This document shows, piece by piece, positions 49,101-62,539 of a stretch of DNA of 64,000 bases. Position 1 is the first letter of the stretch, and each line of letters starts with the position of its first letter. The stretch is from a virus (lineage: Duplodnaviria; Heunggongvirae; Uroviricota; Caudoviricetes), in the IMG/VR virus record IMGVR_UViG_2706794662_000007. One strand, 5' to 3'. A model generated the notes under the pieces. The model searched no databases. It had not been told where the DNA came from and saw only the letters and a list, made by a program, of their open reading frames with translations. Both the position numbers and the translations under genes were made by a program.

Positions 49101-49679
49101 CCGGACGTTAATCTGGTCGTAGAATGGGGTAGGGTGCGGATAAACCACACTATAGAAGTTGTCTTTTCCACCCGGTGTAATCAGTGTGCTTATGATTTTT
49201 GCAAAATCGTTGCGTTGGAACACGCTACCGATGTCGGAAGTGAGCAGGATGATGTTGCCTTTGGCATATGTAGAAACCAACTGTTCGAGCGAGAGACGCG
49301 GTACAAAGTAGAACTGTTCTCGTGTGTTGGCCACCGTCATTAGTTCGCAGATGTCGCGATATCCTTGCTCATTTTTAATTAGAGCGGTAAACGAGTAGTT
49401 ACGTCCTCGCTCTAATGATTCCATACATCCCTTAGATTCTTTAGCAAGTTTATCCCGGTGCTCGTATGTGGGATCATCAACGATGTTTAGTTTCACACCA
49501 CAAATAACCGCCATGTCGTCACCAGCGGCACGTTGTAGTGGAATAACACTCGCAATATTCATGCTATCTGCTGAAATTACAGCGGTGTAGCCAGCTTCTC
49601 TGGCAATCTTCACCGCGTTTTCTGCTTTTAGAGCCGACTCCCCAAGTGAGAAGTCAGTTCGAACCATCAGTGCCTTCAT
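46161..49679 (-). CDS. dnaE: DNA polymerase III alpha-like (DnaE-family) replicative polymerase
   Basis: 1172 aa; N-terminal PHP domain; GFCGYFLMVRDLMNHSRETGIPVGPGRGSSAGSLVAWCIGITNVDPIRHGLLFERFINPER matches the DnaE palm region. Confidence 0.9.
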   Translation of the reverse strand: MKALMVRTDFSLGESALKAENAVKIAREAGYTAVISADSMNIASVIPLQRAAGDDMAVICGVKLNIVDDPTYEHRDKLAKESKGCMESLERGRNYSFTALIKNEQGYRDICELMTVANTREQFYFVPRLSLEQLVSTYAKGNIILLTSDIGSVFQRNDFAKIISTLITPGGKDNFYSVVYPHPTPFYDQINVRAMKVASALKIEPVAFYPAYYESIDDADIKDIAHMVTNNIKIDQPHRLRIPHQRDNAVNGRRHLLEALKAFSVRMDVPVTAAMASTTQDTIIDACTWRWHELPPALPKMADDEPATLMKLAVAGLRKRLTTKEFGYTPPASENRVYVERLKYEMDTLTRLGFCGYFLMVRDLMNHSRETGIPVGPGRGSSAGSLVAWCIGITNVDPIRHGLLFERFINPERLDLPDADLDFSQARRHEVIEYLNERYGEDYVAGIPNFTYLGAASALRDTARIYGVESADMAVSKELKNVEDDSLPLEELREQLASLDKYATKYPDAFNAACKLQSLMRGFGRHAAGMIVAGVPLTERTPVERRGDARCIAFDKRYCEAMGLIKLDVLGLATLDLLDSAKRYIKENTGEDINLDTISLEDRKVLDGFAAGYTQGVFQLESGPMRKLLKDLGGGIEPMSFKTVVATTALFRPGPIQSGMLDDYVSVAKGFMTPESLHPVLDELTAETNGVILYQEQTMNATRLLAGFTMAEADGVRKAIGKKDMEKMKSMGEKFIVQAQAGWIDVELEDGTTQRIHRAEHFKCEDGTMKTVEEALEYGAKLPINAVRVTASHPGLSEMKAKEIWTAFEKNGAYQFNKSHSVAYSLISYQSMWLKTHYPAEFFAAALTILGEDKHQGLVKDALTYGIRVLPPDVNVSSNRIEIRTLEDGSQVLYAPFSAVKGCSENGCQAIMRAREKVGGKFESLAQFEEAVEKRACNSRVRESLQKVGAFASIEPGSLPATDPERLRDQAELMGNLVIDAVKASRPFEMNSKRSAEINVLMTRMAAEMGLGDELIRPSIGIKPKIMIILDNANGNDARTGYFMENGYDDFKAKLLTAGDLRMGDLYVTGVCKKVKDKEKDYTKDEIGQFTDFMREEINLVRPTYVLTCGSRATALFNNKNKPSDLVGRKEYLPDLDVTVFYGFNPNILYFRPEEGERLEAILADVAETIKS

Positions 49680-51190: not shown

Positions 51191-53299
51191 TCACTTCAAA
51201 ATGATACGAGATAGTTCAGTAACTACAGATGAACCAAGACTATCAACGCTCGTTACCAGGGCATGATTTGAGTAAAATCTCTCCGGTGCGTCAGTCATGA
51301 TGCCAATTGCCATCAAATCAATGTCAGTCTGCGTTTCAATTTGCTTCGCAACCGAACGCAAATGAGCGTCAAAACCTCTCCCAACAGCCCACGGCGCGCC
51401 ATCACTCAGAACAAGCATGATCTTCCTGTCCTCCATGCGACCGGAAAATAACGATGCAAGGCTGGCTATGCTTTCACCATCCACGTTATTAAGAAGTGGG
51501 AATGTGTAGCCTACGCACCCCATACGTGAGCGAACTTCGCGAGAACTTACCTTTTCATTCCAATTTTTGATGATAGGTAGCATTAAAGATTCAAAGCGAG
51601 AGAACTCATACTTGACAGCCTTAAGTTCTCCTGCCGCCATATGACTACCAAATGTAGTGAAGCCGGTGATAATGTTGGGAACATTTATTCGATCAAGGGC
51701 ATCGGCGATGGTATATGAACTTGCAAGAGCCAATTGTATCGTTATACCACTCATTGAACCTGATAAATCAATCACTTGTTGAACACAGGCGTTAACGGCT
51801 TTAGATTCTTCTTTTTTACGAAACACGCGATCATCATTCATTGCTAATCTGTAGATACTAGAACCATGAATGCGCCCCCGACGCTGGCCCGGTATAAACT
51901 GAACTCTGTTTCTGCTTGCTATTGCTCGCTCCAGGTCTTTTGCCAGCGTCGACGAAACACCTGACGAAAGATGCTTTTCAATATATTTGTCGAAGAGCTG
52001 GTTGCCTTCAGGAACGATGCGATAGCGGCTGATTGGATATCCTCCTAAATCAATATCGGAGAATGTTTTAATAAGCCGTTTGATATGGGCTTCTGCCTGA
52101 TCAATCGAGCCGATGAAGTCGTATGAGCGATTGTATGGCCTGTATTCGCTTTTCGAGCTTTCTGTTAACTCGCTTTTAATCGTTTCGGATAGAGCATCTT
52201 CTGTCATGCCTCCGACTTCATCTTCTATGCTATCCAGCTCCTCTAAAGCCTCTTCCAGACTCATTTTTGACGGAGTTGGAATATCTGAAGAGCCGTCTTC
52301 TGTCGTTTTTCTTTTTTCGTGGTCAGCGGTTAATGATTCTGACGCCGCGTTATCAGAAGCATCAGAATCTGATACCTCTTTATCATTTTCTGTATCATCG
52401 AATATTGTTTCTGATGATTCAGAATTATCTGAATCATCACTGTCGTTATTATCATGTTTGTGCTTACTGTGTGATTCTGATTCGATAGATTTGTGATTAT
52501 CTAACGCTGAGGGTGTCTCATGATCTTCGTTGTCTTCATTGTTTTCTCCAGAGGCATCCGTCTGGTCAGCGTCTGAAGGATCGGAAGTTTTTCCCGGAGC
52601 TGACTCCTTACCTTTGCTTTCACTTTCAGTGTCTTTGAGGATCTTAGCTATGGTCGCAGCCACCTTTACACAATCCTCGGTGCAAGACATGTTACGCACG
52701 GCCACATCGATACCATGTTCTTTTAATAATGAAATTGGTTTCTCAATGACAGGCCAGTATTCATCCATGAAATCTACGAACGGTGCTTGGCCATCCCAGG
52801 CTCTTACAACCGGACAGAGAAAGAAGTTTAGAAAAAGCGCGCGCTGATCTTTGCCACAATAAGCAATAGCCTCTGAAGCCTTTGGTTTAAAGACTTTTTC
52901 GATTATAAGGCGCTGAGTTGCCATCAGATTACGTCTCGTTCCGTTAAAGACCTGCCCCATTTTTCGCTCGATGAACACGTCTTCTAATGCATTCCATAGT
53001 GACCGGGAAGGAACGCGTCCTTTTTCTCTCATTTTGTTGGAGACACGAATATCGGTAAACAAAATGTGAGCAACCTCATGATCGAGAAATCCGCGCACAG
53101 CATTCATCAATGCCGGTGTTGCGTTATCCGGAATTGATGGGATGTTTACGAGAATTGGCTCTCCATCATCGTTATAGCGTACATAAGCGTCGTCTCCTCG
53201 TTCTGCAACAGGGATGTTTTTACCTGAAAGGAGAGCGACTACTCGTTTTACACTGTCACGGAAGTCCTGAACCTCTTTGATGGAACGTTTTTTAGACAT
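51191..53299 (-). CDS. cobT: CobT-like von Willebrand factor A domain protein
   Basis: 702 aa; MIDAS motif DLSGSMSG; long acidic D/S/E-rich linker; adjacent to AAA+ partner. Confidence 0.6.
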   Translation of the reverse strand: MSKKRSIKEVQDFRDSVKRVVALLSGKNIPVAERGDDAYVRYNDDGEPILVNIPSIPDNATPALMNAVRGFLDHEVAHILFTDIRVSNKMREKGRVPSRSLWNALEDVFIERKMGQVFNGTRRNLMATQRLIIEKVFKPKASEAIAYCGKDQRALFLNFFLCPVVRAWDGQAPFVDFMDEYWPVIEKPISLLKEHGIDVAVRNMSCTEDCVKVAATIAKILKDTESESKGKESAPGKTSDPSDADQTDASGENNEDNEDHETPSALDNHKSIESESHSKHKHDNNDSDDSDNSESSETIFDDTENDKEVSDSDASDNAASESLTADHEKRKTTEDGSSDIPTPSKMSLEEALEELDSIEDEVGGMTEDALSETIKSELTESSKSEYRPYNRSYDFIGSIDQAEAHIKRLIKTFSDIDLGGYPISRYRIVPEGNQLFDKYIEKHLSSGVSSTLAKDLERAIASRNRVQFIPGQRRGRIHGSSIYRLAMNDDRVFRKKEESKAVNACVQQVIDLSGSMSGITIQLALASSYTIADALDRINVPNIITGFTTFGSHMAAGELKAVKYEFSRFESLMLPIIKNWNEKVSSREVRSRMGCVGYTFPLLNNVDGESIASLASLFSGRMEDRKIMLVLSDGAPWAVGRGFDAHLRSVAKQIETQTDIDLMAIGIMTDAPERFYSNHALVTSVDSLGSSVVTELSRIILK

Positions 53300-53857: not shown

Positions 53858-54244
53858 ATGTCTGACAAAAACATTGAATTTATAGAAAGTCGCTATGCTG
53901 CTTTTATCGCAGGGCTGATTGAATCCTCACCTATGAGTCAGGCCCAAATAGCCAGACTTATTGGTTATAAAAATGCCAACAACCTTTCTTTAATTAAAAG
54001 TGGTAAAATTCCTTTGCCTATCGATAAGGTTCGTCCGCTGGCGTTGGCGCTGGGTATTGAGCCAAGTCGTCTTATGATGATGGTGCTGGAAGAACGCCAA
54101 CCTGAACTCGCAGCATTTTTATACAAAGAAGGTACCGCTCCTCTTAACGAGGACGAAAAACAGGTTCTTGCTGCATATAACGAGCGATTCGGTAAAGAGA
54201 AAGGCGCATCACAAAAGGTTGTTGAGGCCATAAAGTCTCTATGA
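53858..54244 (+). CDS. XRE-family helix-turn-helix transcriptional regulator
   Basis: MSQAQIARLIGYKNANNLSLIKSGKIPLP resembles HTH_XRE; only clear plus-strand gene in this region. Confidence 0.6.
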   Translation: MSDKNIEFIESRYAAFIAGLIESSPMSQAQIARLIGYKNANNLSLIKSGKIPLPIDKVRPLALALGIEPSRLMMMVLEERQPELAAFLYKEGTAPLNEDEKQVLAAYNERFGKEKGASQKVVEAIKSL

Positions 54245-55342
54245 AAAATTTAGACGAATAAGCTCTGTTGATAGACGATCTCCCTTGAATTTGTGGTCAA
54301 TTTCGTCTAAATCCGGTTGCTCTACGATTGATGCGATGTACGTTGAGAAACTTTCTAAGGCGTCTCGCATCTCGTCCATATAATCGTGCCGGTCGTAGAC
54401 CCGATCTATCCCCTCAAGACTGTGGTTCATTATTTTGCGTGATACCTCCTGGCTTATGCCTAATGCTGGGAAGTAACTACGCGCAGTACGGCGCAAATCT
54501 CGGGGTGTAAATGGCGCAAGCTCCATCAGTTCTGGTCGTTCCAGAATACGACGTAATGCCTGGGCTATTGCCACTTTAGACATAGGAAGGTCTTTCCCGA
54601 TTTTTTTATTCGAAGGCACGAGCCACTGGCTGTCTTTACCGTATTCGAACAACTCTTCAATGCATGTGCGCATTAATGTGCTTAAAGGTAGCGAATGCTC
54701 ACGTGCTGACTTGTTTCTCTTGCCTTGATTCCAAACTCCACGCTTAAGATTGAACTCACTTTTTTTAGCCCTCAGTACTTCGTCAGGTCGTCTTGCTGAT
54801 ACAAGACATAGCCTGGCCGCCCATTTTGTACCAGCGCACACATTGAAGTAGTCCCATATATTCCAGAACACCCATACCTCTGCGTCGGTCAGCTTCCGCT
54901 CGCGAGGTGTGGGCTTTGCGCCACCGGCAACTTTGTTTAGTGACATATCGTTTAACGGTGACACGTCTATCATCCCCTGGAAGGCGCACCAGCTAAGGAA
55001 CTGCTTCATCAGAGAGAAAACGCGGCGGCCCATAACAATTTTGCCATCCAATATTAGAGGGTTGACCAGTTGGTTAACCATGAACCTATTAATGTCACTT
55101 ACTTTTACATCAGCAATGTGCGGCAAAACATGTATCAAAATACAATGAACAGCGATCTCTGGCCGACGTCTGGTTATCAGCAGAGATAAGCGAGTGAATA
55201 ACATGAATGCGTCCGAGAATATCATGTTATTGTTGATCTGTGAGATCATAATGGCCTGCATTTGAGATGCTCTTTCGAGATACTCAATTGCCTCTTTTGA
55301 GGTGTTTTCTGCTGCGCGTGCTCTGTCAAAGCTATTTTTCAT
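54239..55342 (-). CDS. tyrosine recombinase (integrase or dimer-resolution recombinase)
   Basis: C-terminal RDLRRTARSY...MNHS...RVYDRHDY consistent with R-H-R-Y catalytic arrangement; box-I-like SARRPDEV. Confidence 0.6.
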   Translation of the reverse strand: MKNSFDRARAAENTSKEAIEYLERASQMQAIMISQINNNMIFSDAFMLFTRLSLLITRRRPEIAVHCILIHVLPHIADVKVSDINRFMVNQLVNPLILDGKIVMGRRVFSLMKQFLSWCAFQGMIDVSPLNDMSLNKVAGGAKPTPRERKLTDAEVWVFWNIWDYFNVCAGTKWAARLCLVSARRPDEVLRAKKSEFNLKRGVWNQGKRNKSAREHSLPLSTLMRTCIEELFEYGKDSQWLVPSNKKIGKDLPMSKVAIAQALRRILERPELMELAPFTPRDLRRTARSYFPALGISQEVSRKIMNHSLEGIDRVYDRHDYMDEMRDALESFSTYIASIVEQPDLDEIDHKFKGDRLSTELIRLNFS

Positions 55343-55549
55343 TTATTGGCATTCACCTAGTTACGCTGATCACCTGTATAAGTAACCAGTATATTAGGCA
55401 TTGATTCTTTTGGAATCAAGCTAAAATCTTTCATGCGGAAAATGATTCCATACCTAAAGAGTATGGAATCATTTTTTTCTGTAGAGCTAGTTTTAAATAT
55501 TTGATTCGATATGAAGCCAGGCAATTTCATGCCTGGCTGTTACTTTGTG

Positions 55550-57463
55550 TTAGGTTGGGTTGTTGATGCTAATGGTAAGTGTTTCGATAGCAAGATCATG
55601 AGTTTGGTTGTTTGTTATATCTGTTAAAACAAAAGCCTCATCACCAAGAGCAATATTGTCTTTAACCAGCTTGAATTTACTCCCCGCCTTGCCATCGAGA
55701 ACGGGAATTACAGTTCCTGTGCCTTTCTCATATTGCAACTCAAGAGTGTGCCAATTGTTGTCGTAGTCACCATATGAGTCTATCTGAACATTTCGATTAT
55801 TGCCTGTCCTGTGCATCATAATGTTCAACTTGCCTCCAATTGTTTGAAGGAAGAAGTTAGCCAGAAACAGGCTCCCAGTACCGTCGAATGATATATCGTC
55901 AGCAACAGGTTTACTGGTTTTGTAATATATACCAAAGCCAAACTTAGCTTTTTTTGGATCAGGGTTTCCAGATAATTTAAACTTACAAAGTAATTTACCT
56001 CCATTCTCAAGAAGAGCCTGTGCTATGTCAGTAGCTTTACTGATCGTCCAAGTTTCGTTGGAAACCGCTTTAGTTAAAGCAATTGCTTTTCCGTTTTCAA
56101 CTGACTGAATATTTGCACCAGTTACAGTCCATCCTTGTTCAGTAGCGACATCACCACCAGCTCCAGTTAAGGAAATAACCGTTCGCGGGGTTGGAGTTGT
56201 GACAATGTTGTCATTTTTAGGTTGAGTAGGTTGTTCTTGTTTAATAATCTCACCTGTAACGCCATTCACAAAAGCAGATGATTTCGCTGAATGTGCAAGC
56301 AGCGCAGTTGCGAGACGATCAGATATTATTCCGCGTCGCTGCCATGAACCAAAATGACTCTCTCTACTCTCGGAAGTCCATGTTTTATTATCCTTGCGAT
56401 GACCGGAACCATAATAGCCAATAGATGTGATGTCTGGATCATCTGTAGGGCTATTGGTTAATACGTTATTATCATTCTCATCTTTCATGAATGGAACGAA
56501 ATAAATTGCTTGTGAGGTTTTTCCCTTATAACCACCATAAACAATTTCGTACTGTTTTGGATATTTGTTTTTCCACCAGTGGGTCGTATCGCCACAAATC
56601 CAGGGTACATTTGCAGCACTTCCGAAAACACATTGTGCGTCGTATTGAGATAGCTCTTTTCTGAAACCTTCGACCATCTTGAGGAACAGTTCGTTATGCT
56701 GCGAGTACTTGCCAGTTGCCAAATCAGCTTCGCCTTGCATCCAGACAACACCAAGAAATACATTCTTTTTGTTTTTACTTAAGGCCGCTTTTGTTCTGGC
56801 TACAATATCCTTATACAAAGGAGTATTTAATCCCCATTTTAAAGATGATTCGATTGCACCTGACTCTTCATAATATTGGCCTTCAGAGCCTGTAACAGTG
56901 AAACCAGAACCACCTCTTCCGCAAGGAACGAGCAAAATACCTGCGTTTGCTGGAATGAATGGTAATAGTTTTTTGCCAATGTGTAGTCCCTGACCAACAC
57001 ATCCATATTCAGAGTCGTTTGCTTTTGGATGCTTGAATTTAGTCATGTCTTGTACATCATGAAGACAGTGATCAGCGGGAATTATTTCATTGTACTTACA
57101 GGCAAAACCACCTGGTTTAATATTGCTGCGTCGAGCTAACTGTTTTACGCGAGGATGTGGCCGATCAAAAGTTTTTGGCATAGGCAGTCCTTCGCCGTAT
57201 GACATTGAGTTGGATTGACCTGCGATAGTAACTACATAATAATAGTCAGGCTCTTCATCTTCATTTGATACCGGTGTGGGCAATTGTGATAAATCACCAG
57301 ATCGCACAATTGCTTGATTGTACGCATTTGGTCCGCCCTTACTTGGTTCAACAATGTTTGGTGACTCGAAAGGTTGCCAACCCTCTGCGATTTTCTCCGC
57401 AAGTTTTTCTCTAAGCTCTTTGCTTGATGATGCTGACAAAATATCATAGTCAATGAATGACAT
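55550..57463 (-). CDS. NanS-p-like sialate O-acetylesterase (DUF1737 N-terminus, SGNH esterase, C-terminal beta-rich domain)
   Basis: YYYVVTIAGQSNSMSYGEG (GQSN block); N-terminus MSFIDYDILSASSSKELREKL resembles prophage NanS-p family as recalled. Confidence 0.6.
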   Translation of the reverse strand: MSFIDYDILSASSSKELREKLAEKIAEGWQPFESPNIVEPSKGGPNAYNQAIVRSGDLSQLPTPVSNEDEEPDYYYVVTIAGQSNSMSYGEGLPMPKTFDRPHPRVKQLARRSNIKPGGFACKYNEIIPADHCLHDVQDMTKFKHPKANDSEYGCVGQGLHIGKKLLPFIPANAGILLVPCGRGGSGFTVTGSEGQYYEESGAIESSLKWGLNTPLYKDIVARTKAALSKNKKNVFLGVVWMQGEADLATGKYSQHNELFLKMVEGFRKELSQYDAQCVFGSAANVPWICGDTTHWWKNKYPKQYEIVYGGYKGKTSQAIYFVPFMKDENDNNVLTNSPTDDPDITSIGYYGSGHRKDNKTWTSESRESHFGSWQRRGIISDRLATALLAHSAKSSAFVNGVTGEIIKQEQPTQPKNDNIVTTPTPRTVISLTGAGGDVATEQGWTVTGANIQSVENGKAIALTKAVSNETWTISKATDIAQALLENGGKLLCKFKLSGNPDPKKAKFGFGIYYKTSKPVADDISFDGTGSLFLANFFLQTIGGKLNIMMHRTGNNRNVQIDSYGDYDNNWHTLELQYEKGTGTVIPVLDGKAGSKFKLVKDNIALGDEAFVLTDITNNQTHDLAIETLTISINNPT

Positions 57464-57607
57464 AATCGTTACTCCTTTAACGATAAACTTTAGCTAAAAT
57501 CGTATCGATTTTAGCAGTTAAAAAACGACAATAAAATATAAGAGTAATGTATGAAAGAACAATAAAAATTGCGTAAATGGATATGTGTAAAATATGTGGA
57601 ATTTCAC

Positions 57608-57687
57608 ACACAGCGTTGAGCGGTCTGGTTTATGTTAGCGGAGTCTTAATCGAGTTGATTAAAAGGCCAAACCGCTCAACGCTGTGT
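57608..57687. repeat. 17-bp perfect inverted repeat (ACACAGCGTTGAGCGGT) with 46-bp spacer, abutting tRNA-Ser
   Basis: arms 57608-57624 and 57671-57687. Confidence 0.8.
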
Positions 57688-57688
57688 C

Positions 57689-57775
57689 TGGCGGAGAGTA
57701 ATGGAATCGAACCATCATCGCTTGCGCAATGGGACGGTTTTCAAGACCGCTTGAGCACCATGCTCCCTACTCTCC
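57689..57775 (-). tRNA. tRNA-Ser (anticodon UGA), type II with long variable arm
   Basis: 7-bp acceptor stem GGAGAGT/ACTCTCC, anticodon loop CTTGAAA, T-loop TTCGATT, encoded CCA; short D-loop. Confidence 0.65.
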
Positions 57776-57939
57776 AGTCGTTGTGGTTACCGGTACTGAT
57801 CTCCGGCTTAGCGACCCCGGCTACTGACTGCATTGCAGTGTGTGAACTCGCCTCGTGTGTCGCTGGGGCATTTCTTTCCGCGCATCAGTCTGCGCATCAA
57901 CCACAACGGAAAGAGCATTCACGTCTCGCGTGCCACCAC

Positions 57940-58035
57940 GAATGGCAACTCAGAGAGTCGAACTCTGAAAATGTTCTTACCTGTTGTGCGCTCCGTTTCG
58001 TGGAGCTAACGGCGGGTGAACAGGCCGCACCAGGT
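57940..58035 (-). pseudogene. tRNA-like remnant (T-arm intact, no pairing acceptor stem)
   Basis: perfect T-arm CAGAG-TTCGACT-CTCTG but no complementary acceptor stem found. Confidence 0.3.
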
Positions 58036-58265
58036 TGGACATATTTCAGCGTTATGCTGTTGCAAGAGAGCCAAATTGTGATGGTCGGCGCTGATCTCCG
58101 ACACAGGGTTGTAGCAAGCCCCGCAAAGCGCGCACTACTGTAGTTGCGGCACATCAGCCTGTGCATTCACCACAATGTTGAGAACACTGGTTGTCACGCG
58201 GCAACGCAACATTTATTCATAGATTGGGATATGACCCCGTTACGCCAATGTTCTCAATATTATGT

Positions 58266-58341
58266 TGGTGCCGATTAACGGGATCGAACCGATGACCATT
58301 CGCTTACAAAGCGACTGCTCTACCAACTGAGCTAAATCGGC
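58266..58341 (-). tRNA. tRNA-Thr (anticodon UGU)
   Basis: acceptor GCCGATT/AATCGGC, D-arm TAGCTCAGTTGGTAGAGCA, anticodon loop TTTGTAA, T-loop TTCGATC, encoded CCA. Confidence 0.8.
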
Positions 58342-58345
58342 AATT

Positions 58346-58432
58346 TGGTGGGGAGTGATAGAGTCGAACCACCCGAGTCGCAATGACAGTAGATTTACAG
58401 TCTACCCCGCTACCTCTACGGACTAACTCCCC
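58346..58432 (-). tRNA. tRNA-Tyr (anticodon GUA), type II
   Basis: acceptor GGGGAGT/ACTCCCC, anticodon arm GTAGA-CTGTAAA-TCTAC, long variable arm, encoded CCA. Confidence 0.8.
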
Positions 58433-58437
58433 TAAAT

Positions 58438-58512
58438 TGGCGATGGTGGGTGGATTCGAACCACCGACCAATTGGTTAACAGCCAACTGCTCTACCGCTG
58501 AGCTACACCATC
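58438..58512 (-). tRNA. tRNA-Asn (anticodon GUU)
   Basis: perfect 7-bp acceptor GATGGTG/CACCATC, anticodon loop CTGTTAA, T-arm GGTGG-TTCGAAT-CCACC, encoded CCA; differs from E. coli tRNA-Asn as recalled. Confidence 0.85.
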
Positions 58513-58760
58513 AATTCGGCACTGCCAGTATTTATTACTCAACAGTGCCAATCGCGGCGGTGTTAGTTTCTGCCAGGAAACGCACCGCTACTTGCACTTT
58601 TCGTTAGTGTCAGACGCTTTCGACTTCTCTCAATAGAAGGCAAAATCTTTAAGTAGATGATGTTTCTGAGGACAGCACCTACTTTGTAATTTATACAATG
58701 TGATGTATGGAATCATTTGTTGTGGAAAAGTGGTTAAACCTACACAACAATCCTGTCTTC

Positions 58761-58880
58761 ACAACGTTGAGGCCACTACTCCGATTGAATGTTTGCCCAA
58801 CATGTTACATATCAACGCTCGCCGGTATCTCTGTGAATAGAACCTTAGAATTGATAAAAATGTAATGGCCTCAACGTTGT
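58761..58880. repeat. 15-bp perfect inverted repeat (ACAACGTTGAGGCCA) with ~90-bp spacer, related to the repeat at 57608
   Basis: arms 58761-58775 and 58866-58880; shares core CACARCGTTGAG with 57608-57687. Confidence 0.8.
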
Positions 58881-58958
58881 GTGCTGGCTAACCATACCAG
58901 CCGGGCTACGTCGCCGCTTTTTAACCCAGTATAAACGACATAATTGAACAAAATGACG

Positions 58959-59066
58959 TAACAGAATGGGCGGTCAGTGGCTAAGAATCCGGGAGTCATA
59001 TGGAGTTGAAAATATACCGACCGCCCATTCTGTTACTTCATCGGAGGGAACATGAGTGTTCCCTCC
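58959..59066. repeat. two further perfect inverted repeats (17-bp arms with 43-bp spacer; 10-bp arms with 4-nt loop)
   Basis: arms 58959-58975/59019-59035 and 59043-59052/59057-59066. Confidence 0.8.
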
Positions 59067-59271
59067 TGCGTTCTGCAATCACACTCGCTCAGTGTGTCCC
59101 ATTTCGGTAACGAGGCTGGAAACTGACCTCGCTGGTGTTTGGCTTATTAGGCTACTGCCAGATAGACTTCTTCGTTTGCACTTGTATTTAAGTTCAAACA
59201 GTCGCATCTCAACGAAAACAAAGTCATCTTATACACAAAGGATAAGTAAGTAAATACTTATCGATATGTTT

Positions 59272-59562
59272 TTATTCGGTTGTGACTTTTTTGATCAAGG
59301 CCACTCTACGACTAGGTGTTCTTGTGATGGTGGCAGTGAATCGTTTCGCTTGGATAGTAATGGTTTCGTTCTCCTTAAGTTGCCCGTAGCGAGTTTCCAC
59401 CAGGGTGCCAAGACGCCACAGACCATCATCGATACGTTTATGACTAGCAAATTTAATCAGCAACAGTTTTACGACTAACTGACCTACGTAAAAGGCGAAT
59501 GCGACTCCGACCGCTAAGAAATAGGTGGCCAACCACCAGTCCCAAGAAGTTAAATTGCTCAT
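59272..59562 (-). CDS. hypothetical membrane protein
   Basis: 96 aa with N-terminal hydrophobic segment. Confidence 0.4.
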   Translation of the reverse strand: MSNLTSWDWWLATYFLAVGVAFAFYVGQLVVKLLLIKFASHKRIDDGLWRLGTLVETRYGQLKENETITIQAKRFTATITRTPSRRVALIKKVTTE

Positions 59563-59712
59563 TTTCTAACCTTTGTTTCATGAACTACCCGATACACACG
59601 CTTTCCGATGCACAGTGTTTTGGTTTTAAGTTCCTGCTTAATTAAATCACGACAGATGCCGAAGCCGATAAGGAAGCCACCAATAAAAGCTAATGAGATG
59701 TATGGAATCATT
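59560..59712 (-). CDS. small membrane protein (50 aa), translationally coupled
   Basis: below ORF-track cutoff; ATGA overlap with downstream gene. Confidence 0.3.
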
Positions 59713-61242: not shown

Positions 61243-62539
61243 TGTTGTTTTACCTCCATATGTTGATCGATTTGCTCATGTGTTTCTTTTGTTGTTTCTT
61301 CAAGCAACGCCGCATACACGTCAGTGATCGCTGTTTGTGATGTGGTGCTCTTCTTAACCATGCTATTAATCGTTACACTGTCACGTTTTCGTTTTAAAGT
61401 TCTGGCTTGTTTATTCCGTTCTTCAACCTCCTTAATGAGCGCGGTCATATCTTCGAAATACAGAGATTCTCCTTTACGAATCTCTTCAACCATCATTTTT
61501 AACGCCTTGCATTTGCCTGCTTTGATAGCGGTTGCGCACGACTGGAATGAAGTTCGAGGAAGACGGTTTTCTTTGAAGGCAAGAATGGTGTGCTGGCAAA
61601 CGGAGTAGCTGCAATATGCCGACTCACCGTTTATNNNNNNNNNNNNNNNNNNNNNNNNNNNNNNNNNNNNNNNNNNNNNNNNNNNNNNNNNNNNNNNNNN
61701 NNNNNNNNNNNNNNNNNNNNNNNNNNNNNNNNNNNNNNNNNNNNNNNNNNNNNNNNNNNNNNNNNNNNNNNNNNNNNNNNNNNNNNNNNNNNNNNNNNNN
61801 NNNNNNNNNNNNNNNNNNNNNNNNNNNNNNNNNNNNNNNNNNNNNNNNNNNNNNNNNNNNNNNNNNNNNNNNNNNNNNNNNNNNTAGCAATCCTGACCAC
61901 CTTCCAAGCAAATTCCGCCATTACGCCATCACATGCCTTCCCAGCATCAATAACGATATGCACCAGATCCAACTGGCTTTTGCACATGTCGCAAAGAGAC
62001 GCATACTCACTCTCTCTGATTACATTTACGGCATCATTAGCCCCTTTATTAAGCAAGACTTCCAACAGATTTTTCGGGGTAACGAAATCTGCTTTCAGAG
62101 ATAATGTCTTTTCACCACTTATCGAACGCAAGTACTCTTCGTAGTTATTCTTCATCAAACCGCTGCTGCGCATTGCTAGAACTGCTTCTTGAATGGCCGC
62201 TTCAATAGTTTCGTCGTTTGAAAGACAAAAAACGGTATTTGTGTAGATCACTCTGCCATCAAGCCATGCTCCAACCTGCACTTTAAGACTGAGCGGGTTT
62301 TCTTTGCTAATAAAAACAACTAATGCAGAACGTCGTGCACAAGAAGGTTCACCCCATACGTGTAACTTAACCTTCAGATAAGGTAGCCCCGGTAGCGGGA
62401 TCTCGACCAAACGAGTGGCGATATGATCCATTGCTGTTTTTACCGCTTTTTCAATGATGTCTAGTCGATTGCTCTCGCTGATTTCTAAACCAGTTTTATC
62501 AATGATGTCGCAGGCTAATTTCTGAATTTCGTCTTTCAT
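61239..62539 (-). CDS. hypothetical replication-associated protein (interrupted by N-run 61635-61884)
   Basis: two ORF pieces either side of the gap, between primase and ligase; frame continuity cannot be verified. Confidence 0.35.

Follow-up and report, generated by a model that had tools for sequence, protein, structure and literature searches.

The nanS-p gene and its product

This work concerns a NanS-p-like sialate O-acetylesterase gene carried in a 64,000-nucleotide stretch of Caudoviricetes DNA (IMG/VR record IMGVR_UViG_2706794662_000007); throughout, the window means this whole stretch. An initial annotation had placed a NanS-p-like open reading frame (ORF) at positions 55550-57463, and the ORF is found exactly there, on the minus strand and with an ATG start. 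The gene and its parts are as follows:

55550-57463, minus strand: nanS-p-like gene (ATG-start ORF of 637 amino acids; PHROG 143; three Pfam domains)
57472-57478, minus strand: Shine-Dalgarno sequence AAAGGAG, 8 nt before the ATG, as read from the sequence
57299-57463, minus strand: N-terminal DUF1737 domain (amino acids 1-55), from PF08410 and the predicted structural layout
56297-57265, minus strand: NanS-like SGNH/SASA esterase domain (amino acids 67-389) with Ser84 and His370, from the match to 3pt5, Foldseek and signature blocks
55553-56143, minus strand: C-terminal DUF6645 lectin-like jelly-roll domain (amino acids 441-637), from the match to 6yp6 and Foldseek
55550-55552, minus strand: stop codon

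The ribosome-binding site is strong and the ORF is intact. Its 637-amino-acid product is an intact member of the NanS-p family with the full three-domain architecture. PHROG 143 matches the protein from end to end (E=4e-270), and none of the NCBIfam models does. Each Pfam call was judged against the gathering cut-off of its family, and all three exceed it: DUF1737 (PF08410, amino acids 6-54, 28.6 bits against a cut-off of 24), SASA (PF03629, amino acids 80-285, 43.6 bits against 24.8) and DUF6645 (PF20350, amino acids 485-600, 56.2 bits against 27). Sequence matches in the Protein Data Bank (PDB) point the same way. Amino acids 67-389 match Escherichia coli NanS/YjhS (3pt5; E=6e-116, 55% identity), and amino acids 441-634 match the crystallised C-terminal domain of the NanS-p of phage phi24B (6yp6; E=1.5e-26). 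The initial annotation had described an SGNH/SASA esterase with an N-terminal domain of prophage type, and the Pfam, PHROG and PDB matches bear this out.

An AlphaFold2 (AF2) model of moderate confidence (mean predicted local distance difference test score of 70) served for the domain layout only. In this model the N-terminus has strands at residues 5-11, 30-38 and 47-54 and a helix at 14-26, a predicted beta-alpha-beta-beta arrangement, and disordered linkers lie at 56-70 and 395-425. Because the N-terminus is a DUF1737 fold, there is no signal peptide. In Foldseek the esterase core superposes on NanS with a template-modelling (TM) score of 0.86, and the C-terminal beta-sandwich superposes on 6YP6 with a TM-score of 0.88; its next matches are lectin-type jelly rolls and toxin-HCN folds.

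The SGNH catalytic residues are retained, both the Ser84/His370 dyad and the NanS-type oxyanion and block motifs. When the protein is aligned with NanS and ten NanS-p proteins, four blocks are invariant: A81-G-Q-S84-N85, R183-G-G-S186, W241-M-Q-G-E245-x-D247 and R367-x-S-H370-F371. Ser84 and His370 are the equivalents of Ser19 and His301 of NanS, with numbering transferred through the 3pt5 alignment. Block IV reads RESH in the window protein, the same atypical form as the RSSH or RASH that distinguishes NanS and NanS-p (PMC10462455). In the C-terminal module, the aromatic residues proposed to form the carbohydrate site of the phi24B protein vb_24B_21 (Y510, Y515, Y540 and F611) map by alignment to F508, Y513, F538 and L606 here; three of the four positions are aromatic.

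An SSU5-like phage-plasmid with a variable cargo interval

The 6-kb segment around the gene is 100% identical in four Shigella sonnei plasmids (LR213459.1, NZ_CP053753.1 (pMHMC-002), CP104415.1 and NZ_CP045933.1) and 99% identical in a 109-kb plasmid of E. coli O104:H4 2009EL-2050 and in 'Escherichia phage CMS-2020a'. On the plasmid and replication side, the annotation of NZ_CP053753.1 contains a RepB initiator, ParB proteins, a DnaB-like helicase, a primase and a ligase. It also lists DnaE, CobT and CobS-like proteins, NrdAB and ThyA, as well as a siphovirus module of terminase, portal, capsid, tape measure and tail fibre genes. The phage-plasmid backbone supposed in the initial annotation is thus seen in an identical plasmid, in the form of RepB, ParB and virion genes, and the window element also matches phage SSU5 and SSU5-like phages. 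These sequence matches identify the replicon as an SSU5-like phage-plasmid carried by S. sonnei and E. coli. Within it, nanS-p is placed in the replication/early (recombinase) region, not in the late region, and lies more than 30 kb from the structural module.

As first annotated, the gene sits between a tyrosine recombinase (the integrase below) and a set of tRNA genes. The features of this interval are:

54239-55342, minus strand: tyrosine recombinase of 367 amino acids (Phage_integrase match), co-directional with and downstream of nanS-p
55439-55475: invariant palindrome AAAATGATTCCATAC-N7-GTATGGAATCATTTT at the left cassette junction, about 100 bp upstream of the integrase start
55474-57608: swapped cargo cassette of about 2.1 kb, defined relative to grxA-type variants by pairwise and multiple junction alignments
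55515-55538: G+C-rich hairpin with a 9-bp stem just past the nanS-p stop codon, computed and read from the sequence
57493-57515: perfect 10-bp palindrome GCTAAAATCG-TAT-CGATTTTAGC in the AT-rich leader of nanS-p, read from the sequence
57605-57690, minus strand: hairpin with a 24-bp stem (dG -46.6 kcal/mol, z -8.6) that abuts the 3' end of tRNA-Ser and whose foot is the right cassette junction
57689-58512, minus strand: tRNA cluster (Ser-TGA, Thr-TGT, Tyr-GTA, Asn-GTT), co-directional with and upstream of nanS-p

The interval from the integrase to tRNA-Ser is a hypervariable cargo hotspot with at least six alternative gene sets. The 6-kb segment is matched by 1,319 plasmid records, 8 of which cover the esterase; in the remainder both flanks are collinear and other cargo lies between the integrase and tRNA-Ser. 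This other cargo includes grxA with two hypothetical genes (S. sonnei p38), grxA with a protein of 420-432 amino acids on the opposite strand, a hypothetical gene with grxA and a Gp49-family gene (Escherichia marmotae), a GadW-like regulator with larger genes (phage PhiR41_1), and a longer set that includes PhoH (Klebsiella phage pJN2-26). In phage SSU5 itself, locus comparison shows that the entire block of integrase, helix-turn-helix (HTH) gene and cargo is absent. We also observed that grxA is missing from the nanS-p variants, although the element encodes NrdAB.

The cassette consists of the ORF, an AT-rich leader of about 145 bp and a trailer of about 75 bp that holds a hairpin; it contains no transposon, integron or insertion sequence (IS). 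The perfect palindrome in the leader, GCTAAAATCG-TAT-CGATTTTAGC, is a possible operator or attenuator, a candidacy that comes from its sequence. The trailer hairpin at 55515-55538 is terminator-like, with a weak T tract on the coding strand.

The left junction of the cassette abuts the invariant palindrome, ATGATTCCATAC-N7-GTATGGAATCAT. Its 12-mer occurs five times in the window where 0.34 occurrences are expected, and half-sites lie at 49415-49426 (plus strand), 58705-58716 (minus strand) and 59700-59711 (minus strand). The arms are unchanged in seven E. coli, Shigella and E. marmotae loci and in Klebsiella phage pJN2-26, whose integrase is only about 73% identical, and the 7-nt spacer varies (CTAAAGA, ATAGTAG, CTACTAT, CTACCAA). 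In several cargo variants, homology stops 0-2 nt outside the cargo-side arm. The palindrome lies just upstream of a promoter-like TTGATT-17-TAATAT for the integrase, and the half-site at 58705 adjoins an extended -10-like TGTATAAAT upstream of the tRNA cluster. From this arrangement the palindrome could be a recombinase site, for dimer resolution or cassette exchange, or an operator. Several variants break exactly at its outer edge, which makes cassette exchange there by the adjacent recombinase an attractive idea. This idea is not established, because the left junction of a second allele (locus L003, described below) differs and keeps the grxA-type terminator, and because half-sites upstream of promoter-like sequences suit an operator equally well. 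The window also departs from the common type in the spacer and in about 25 nt flanking the palindrome on its integrase side, so the exchanged tract may have included the palindrome; if it did, this would point to another element of the SSU5-like family as the donor.

The hairpin at the right junction is kept in all cargo variants. It is one of four long, near-perfect hairpins that flank the tRNA genes (57605-57690, 58168-58267, 58760-58881 and 58953-59041), with stems of 20-26 bp, dG values of -40 to -48 kcal/mol and z-scores of -3.7 to -8.6. Three of the four share the stem motif CACA(A/G)CGTTGAG. None matches an Rfam family, and an Rfam scan of 55300-59400 returned tRNAs only. These hairpins could be processing or terminator structures of the tRNA operon, or inverted repeats resembling miniature inverted-repeat transposable elements.

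The tRNA region has features of its own. A 288-bp tract between tRNA-Ser and tRNA-Thr (57970-58257) shares 93% identity with the upl/plp region of phage P1 and its relatives, and the Thr-Tyr-Asn cluster (57970-58516) is 95% identical to that of phage vB_EcoM-Ro157c2YLVW; these matches suggest exchange between P1-type and SSU5-type phage-plasmids in this region. The spacer between tRNA-Ser and tRNA-Thr (57776-58265) is G+C-rich (50-55%), holds three copies of a 25-nt repeat and ranges from 190 to 646 bp among relatives. At 57943-57963 there is a tRNA 3'-end-like fragment, TGGCAACTCAGAGAGTCGAAC, that resembles the end of tRNA-Tyr. The spacer probably holds tRNA remnants.

Three further observations concern other parts of the element. 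The CobT-like protein (702 amino acids, 51191-53299, minus strand) carries a long acidic, Ser/Asp/Glu-rich low-complexity insert (about residues 225-345) between its CobT and von Willebrand factor A domains. An extreme in AT content (G+C of 18-26%) at about 61400-62000, just past the DNA ligase gene, may be a promoter, an origin or an iteron-type region. In NZ_CP053753.1, which is otherwise identical to the window, an IS2 lies between an Ea22-like gene and a ClpX-zinc-finger gene. The window seems to be without it (at about 10.5-11 kb), since the match is split there and the interval in the plasmid record is about 1.3 kb longer.

Relation to lambdoid NanS-p and maintenance of the allele

The view that NanS-p esterases are characteristic cargo of lambdoid phages agrees with the distribution of homologues: tblastn found them in 347 phage records, 346 of which are from Shiga toxin (Stx) or other lambdoid phages, all at less than 60% identity. 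The phi24B protein (gp84) is collinear with the window protein over its full length at 46% amino acid identity, and over 1,500 E. coli and Escherichia albertii homologues lie for the most part at 47-50%. Divided by domain, identity to the lambdoid proteins is 42-45% in the N-terminus, about 66% in the esterase and 33-44% in the C-terminus; the esterase domain reaches 77% identity to one partial cluster (P0004), compared with 55% to chromosomal NanS. DNA identity to lambdoid copies is 64-66% and covers no more than a portion of the esterase domain, 50% of the gene at most. The G+C content of the gene is 41% (33% at third codon positions, GC3), that of the backbone genes is 44-49% (GC3 40-51%), and that of the phi24B copy is 55%. 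Because the three-domain architecture is shared, common ancestry with the lambdoid proteins is certain at the level of the family, and at that level only.

The allele itself is a distinct, AT-rich lineage found only on phage-plasmids. A megablast search of 5,426 complete E. coli genomes with the cassette returned four copies, all of them on plasmids and none in a chromosome. When the esterase domain was placed in a neighbour-joining tree with NanS as the root, the window protein, P0004 and a protein cluster designated P0002 grouped in a small clade, separate from the 91 other unique sequences. A search of 5.8 billion proteins for a closer donor was empty between 89% and about 57% identity, and the phage and plasmid collections likewise held nothing closer to the window esterase.

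These comparisons bear on the proposal, made in the initial annotation, that the locus is a recent recombinant of an E. coli lambdoid (Stx-type) prophage and a phage-plasmid, with nanS-p, an Ea22-like gene and a DUF551 gene as joint evidence. Its appeal lies in the near-exclusive occurrence of NanS-p homologues in lambdoid and Stx phages and in the presence in the window of Ea22-like and DUF551 genes, which are typical lambdoid accessory genes. However, no lambdoid copy exceeds 50% amino acid or about 65% nucleotide identity, the gap in G+C content to the phi24B copy is 14 points, no flanks were co-transferred (the cassette is without lambdoid neighbours such as Q, stx or S), and none of the 5,426 genomes has the allele in its chromosome. 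The supposed companions also fail to travel with the gene: Ea22-like lies at about 10.5-11.0 kb of the window and DUF551 at about 7.1-7.7 kb, some 45 kb away; they are frequent accessories of the backbone, and pieces of this region occur in 656 plasmids, nearly all without nanS-p. Linkage of nanS-p with these genes is thus rejected, as is a recent lambdoid origin (by identity, G+C content, flanks and distribution), and the recombinant as proposed is highly improbable. The cassette is not from a known E. coli lambdoid prophage. It would instead have been acquired from the gene pool of phage-plasmids by recombination, the donor being unsampled and of lower G+C content.

The sole close relative outside the 90% cluster is P0002, at 89% amino acid identity. 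Its gene occupies the same place on another SSU5-like contig, in the order esterase, integrase, HTH, CobT, CobS-like and DnaE. Its junctions are different: on the left, the palindrome and the stop codon of the esterase are still separated by the grxA-type terminator, and on the upstream side divergence of the flank starts about 95 bp ahead of the ATG. Between the two alleles synonymous divergence (dS) is 0.73, and the ratio of non-synonymous to synonymous divergence (dN/dS) is 0.078; by part, dN/dS is 0.10 in the N-terminus, 0.04 in the esterase, 0.23 in the linker and 0.09 in the C-terminus. The low ratios indicate that the esterase is strongly constrained in all three domains. The flanking backbone genes of the same two elements have dS values of 0.15-0.34. 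That the esterase is above its surroundings in dS fits repeated sampling from a wider pool, and not simple co-divergence in situ.

A protein identical to that of the window is encoded on S. sonnei and E. coli plasmids and is very common among isolates. Exact copies are indexed in 2,650 blocks and were seen on at least 1,000 contigs, most of them named as S. sonnei or E. coli and none over 200 kb in length. [quoted passage not shown]

Proposed function and comparison with known systems

We consider it probable that the gene encodes a functional sialate O-acetylesterase of the NanS-p family, and that it is an accessory ('moron') cassette held by an SSU5-like phage-plasmid in the hotspot between integrase and tRNA genes. 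By analogy with studied homologues, which are 46-50% identical overall and about 66% identical in the catalytic domain, its most probable activity, one that we would assign with good confidence, is the de-O-acetylation of 5-N-acetyl-9-O-acetylneuraminic acid (Neu5,9Ac2) and mucin O-glycans. For the NanS-p alleles of EDL933 and O104:H4, esterase activity, growth on Neu5,9Ac2 and de-O-acetylation of mucin glycans have been demonstrated (PMC8065619), and the C-terminal domain of NanS-p is a lectin-like jelly roll (Franke 2020). On this model the enzyme would strip Neu5,9Ac2, whether free or part of mucin glycans, of its 9-O-acetyl and further O-acetyl groups, and the C-terminal lectin-like module would presumably direct the enzyme to glycans. 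Because a signal peptide is absent, it would act after phage-induced lysis of a fraction of the population or attached to virions, and the N-acetylneuraminic acid (Neu5Ac) released could feed the Nan pathway of surviving lysogens in gut mucus.

Several observations sit less easily with this proposal. A promoter scan of the coding strand upstream of nanS-p found no convincing sigma-70-like promoter, so transcripts may have to come from the tRNA operon by reading through a very stable hairpin. In Stx phages nanS-p is late and inducible (PMC10462455); here its place is the replication/early region instead of a late lysis operon, so release coupled to lysis is drawn by analogy only. In addition, one of the proposed sugar-site aromatics is Leu606 in the window protein, and specificity may differ accordingly.

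Could the protein instead have a primarily structural role? In phi24B, the DUF1737 of gp84 (NanS-p) forms a hexamer that decorates the capsid and plugs the central pore of the hexon through Tyr42, and gp84 is self-processed near SSP motifs (cryo-electron microscopy and proteomics preprint, bioRxiv 10.64898/2026.04.10.717836). If DUF1737 likewise bound the capsid of the phage-plasmid itself at the centres of its hexons, the virion would display the esterase and lectin domains, or self-cleavage would free them, and virions would bind or penetrate mucus. The demonstration that this domain decorates a capsid in phi24B, the purifying selection on the N-terminus (dN/dS 0.10) and the same modelled beta-alpha-beta-beta layout followed by a disordered linker all speak for such a role. 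We nevertheless regard it as unlikely. The phi24B 'tooth' Tyr42 aligns with Lys42, the anchor loop is two residues longer than in phi24B, and SSP-type processing motifs (SISSP, PSSP) are absent. The major capsid proteins have no significant similarity (E=0.34) and belong to different Pfam families: that of the phage-plasmid has 306 amino acids and a weak GP7/SU10-like match, and that of phi24B has 404 amino acids and is a Phage_capsid_3 protein. The gene is also remote from the structural module (more than 30 kb), and its presence in 8 of 1,319 matching plasmid records means that it is dispensable for virion assembly. Given the diverged Tyr42 and SSP features and the unrelated capsids, the decoration mechanism cannot be transferred by homology. 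A related and similarly doubtful possibility is that the esterase is the main accessory function of a highly conserved SSU5-like phage-plasmid present in thousands of S. sonnei and E. coli isolates, with a diverged DUF1737 re-tuned to decorate an unrelated siphovirus capsid. Were this true, virions and lysates would bind and de-O-acetylate colonic mucus, which would aid colonisation by a pathogen otherwise without a phage-borne NanS-p.

The substrate might alternatively be an O-acetylated bacterial surface polysaccharide, such as O-antigen or O-acetylated polysialic capsule, in which case the enzyme would aid adsorption or modify the surface of the lysogen. This has been raised as a general open possibility for NanS-p (PMC8065619), the lectin-like C-terminal module could bind bacterial glycans, and one aromatic residue of the proposed binding site is Leu606 here; yet no NanS-p is known to act on polysaccharides of bacteria, identity in the catalytic domain is 55% to NanS and about 66% to enzymes active on Neu5,9Ac2, and the protein has neither an export signal nor an association with a tail fibre. 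We therefore think it very unlikely. A decaying passenger gene with no current function is less credible still. Such a gene might well be rare among distinct plasmid types, be replaceable by unrelated cargo and have no clear promoter, as is the case here, but it keeps its catalytic residues, thousands of assemblies contain identical full-length copies, and a dN/dS of 0.078 at a dS of 0.73 contradicts the reading of the gene as a pseudogene or passenger.

Assignment of the protein to its family is itself routine. In public annotation it appears as a 'DUF6645/DUF1737 domain-containing protein' and once as a '9-O-acetyl-N-acetylneuraminic acid deacetylase', and the literature searched contained no paper linking SSU5-type phage-plasmids with sialate esterases. 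To our knowledge, NanS-p enzymes have so far been studied only as cargo of integrated Stx/lambdoid prophages of enterohaemorrhagic E. coli. The locus shows that extrachromosomal SSU5-like phage-plasmids, very common in clinical S. sonnei and present in E. coli O104:H4, carry a separate, deeply diverged NanS-p lineage that selection maintains. The gene is a plausible factor in colonisation or nutrition on an element that is usually described as 'cryptic', and the locus offers a natural test case of whether DUF1737 is a portable capsid-binding module. The value of the finding is modest and comes from the phage-plasmid lineage, its prevalence in S. sonnei and this DUF1737 question.

Three known systems place the locus in context. 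The NanS-p proteins of Stx and lambdoid phages (933W Z1466/L0105; phi24B vb_24B_21, which is gp84) have the same order of DUF1737, SASA/NanS esterase and DUF6645 and the same atypical SGNH blocks (GQSN, RGGS, QGExD and RxSH), and they too have no signal peptide. The phi24B gene is likewise phage-borne, co-directional with a phage tRNA cluster and downstream of it. In contrast, the lambdoid genes belong to the Q-stx-nanS-p-S late operon of an integrated phage, whereas the gene described here is extrachromosomal and in a replication/recombinase region; nor does the window protein keep the Tyr42 tooth, the SSP motifs or one sugar-site aromatic of phi24B NanS-p. Chromosomal NanS (YjhS, 3pt5) shares the catalytic domain (55% identity, TM-score of 0.86, with Ser19/His301 kept as Ser84/His370), but it is a single-domain protein of about 326 amino acids encoded in the nanCMS operon, without the DUF1737 and lectin-like domains. 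Finally, the hotspots of the SSU5 supergroup, such as antimicrobial resistance transposons near tRNA loci (insertions near tRNA loci are noted in the 2025 phage-plasmid survey, bioRxiv 10.1101/2025.09.12.675607), similarly hold cargo that adjoins a tRNA cluster and varies between collinear elements; in comparison with those resistance hotspots, what is carried here is one metabolic or colonisation gene.

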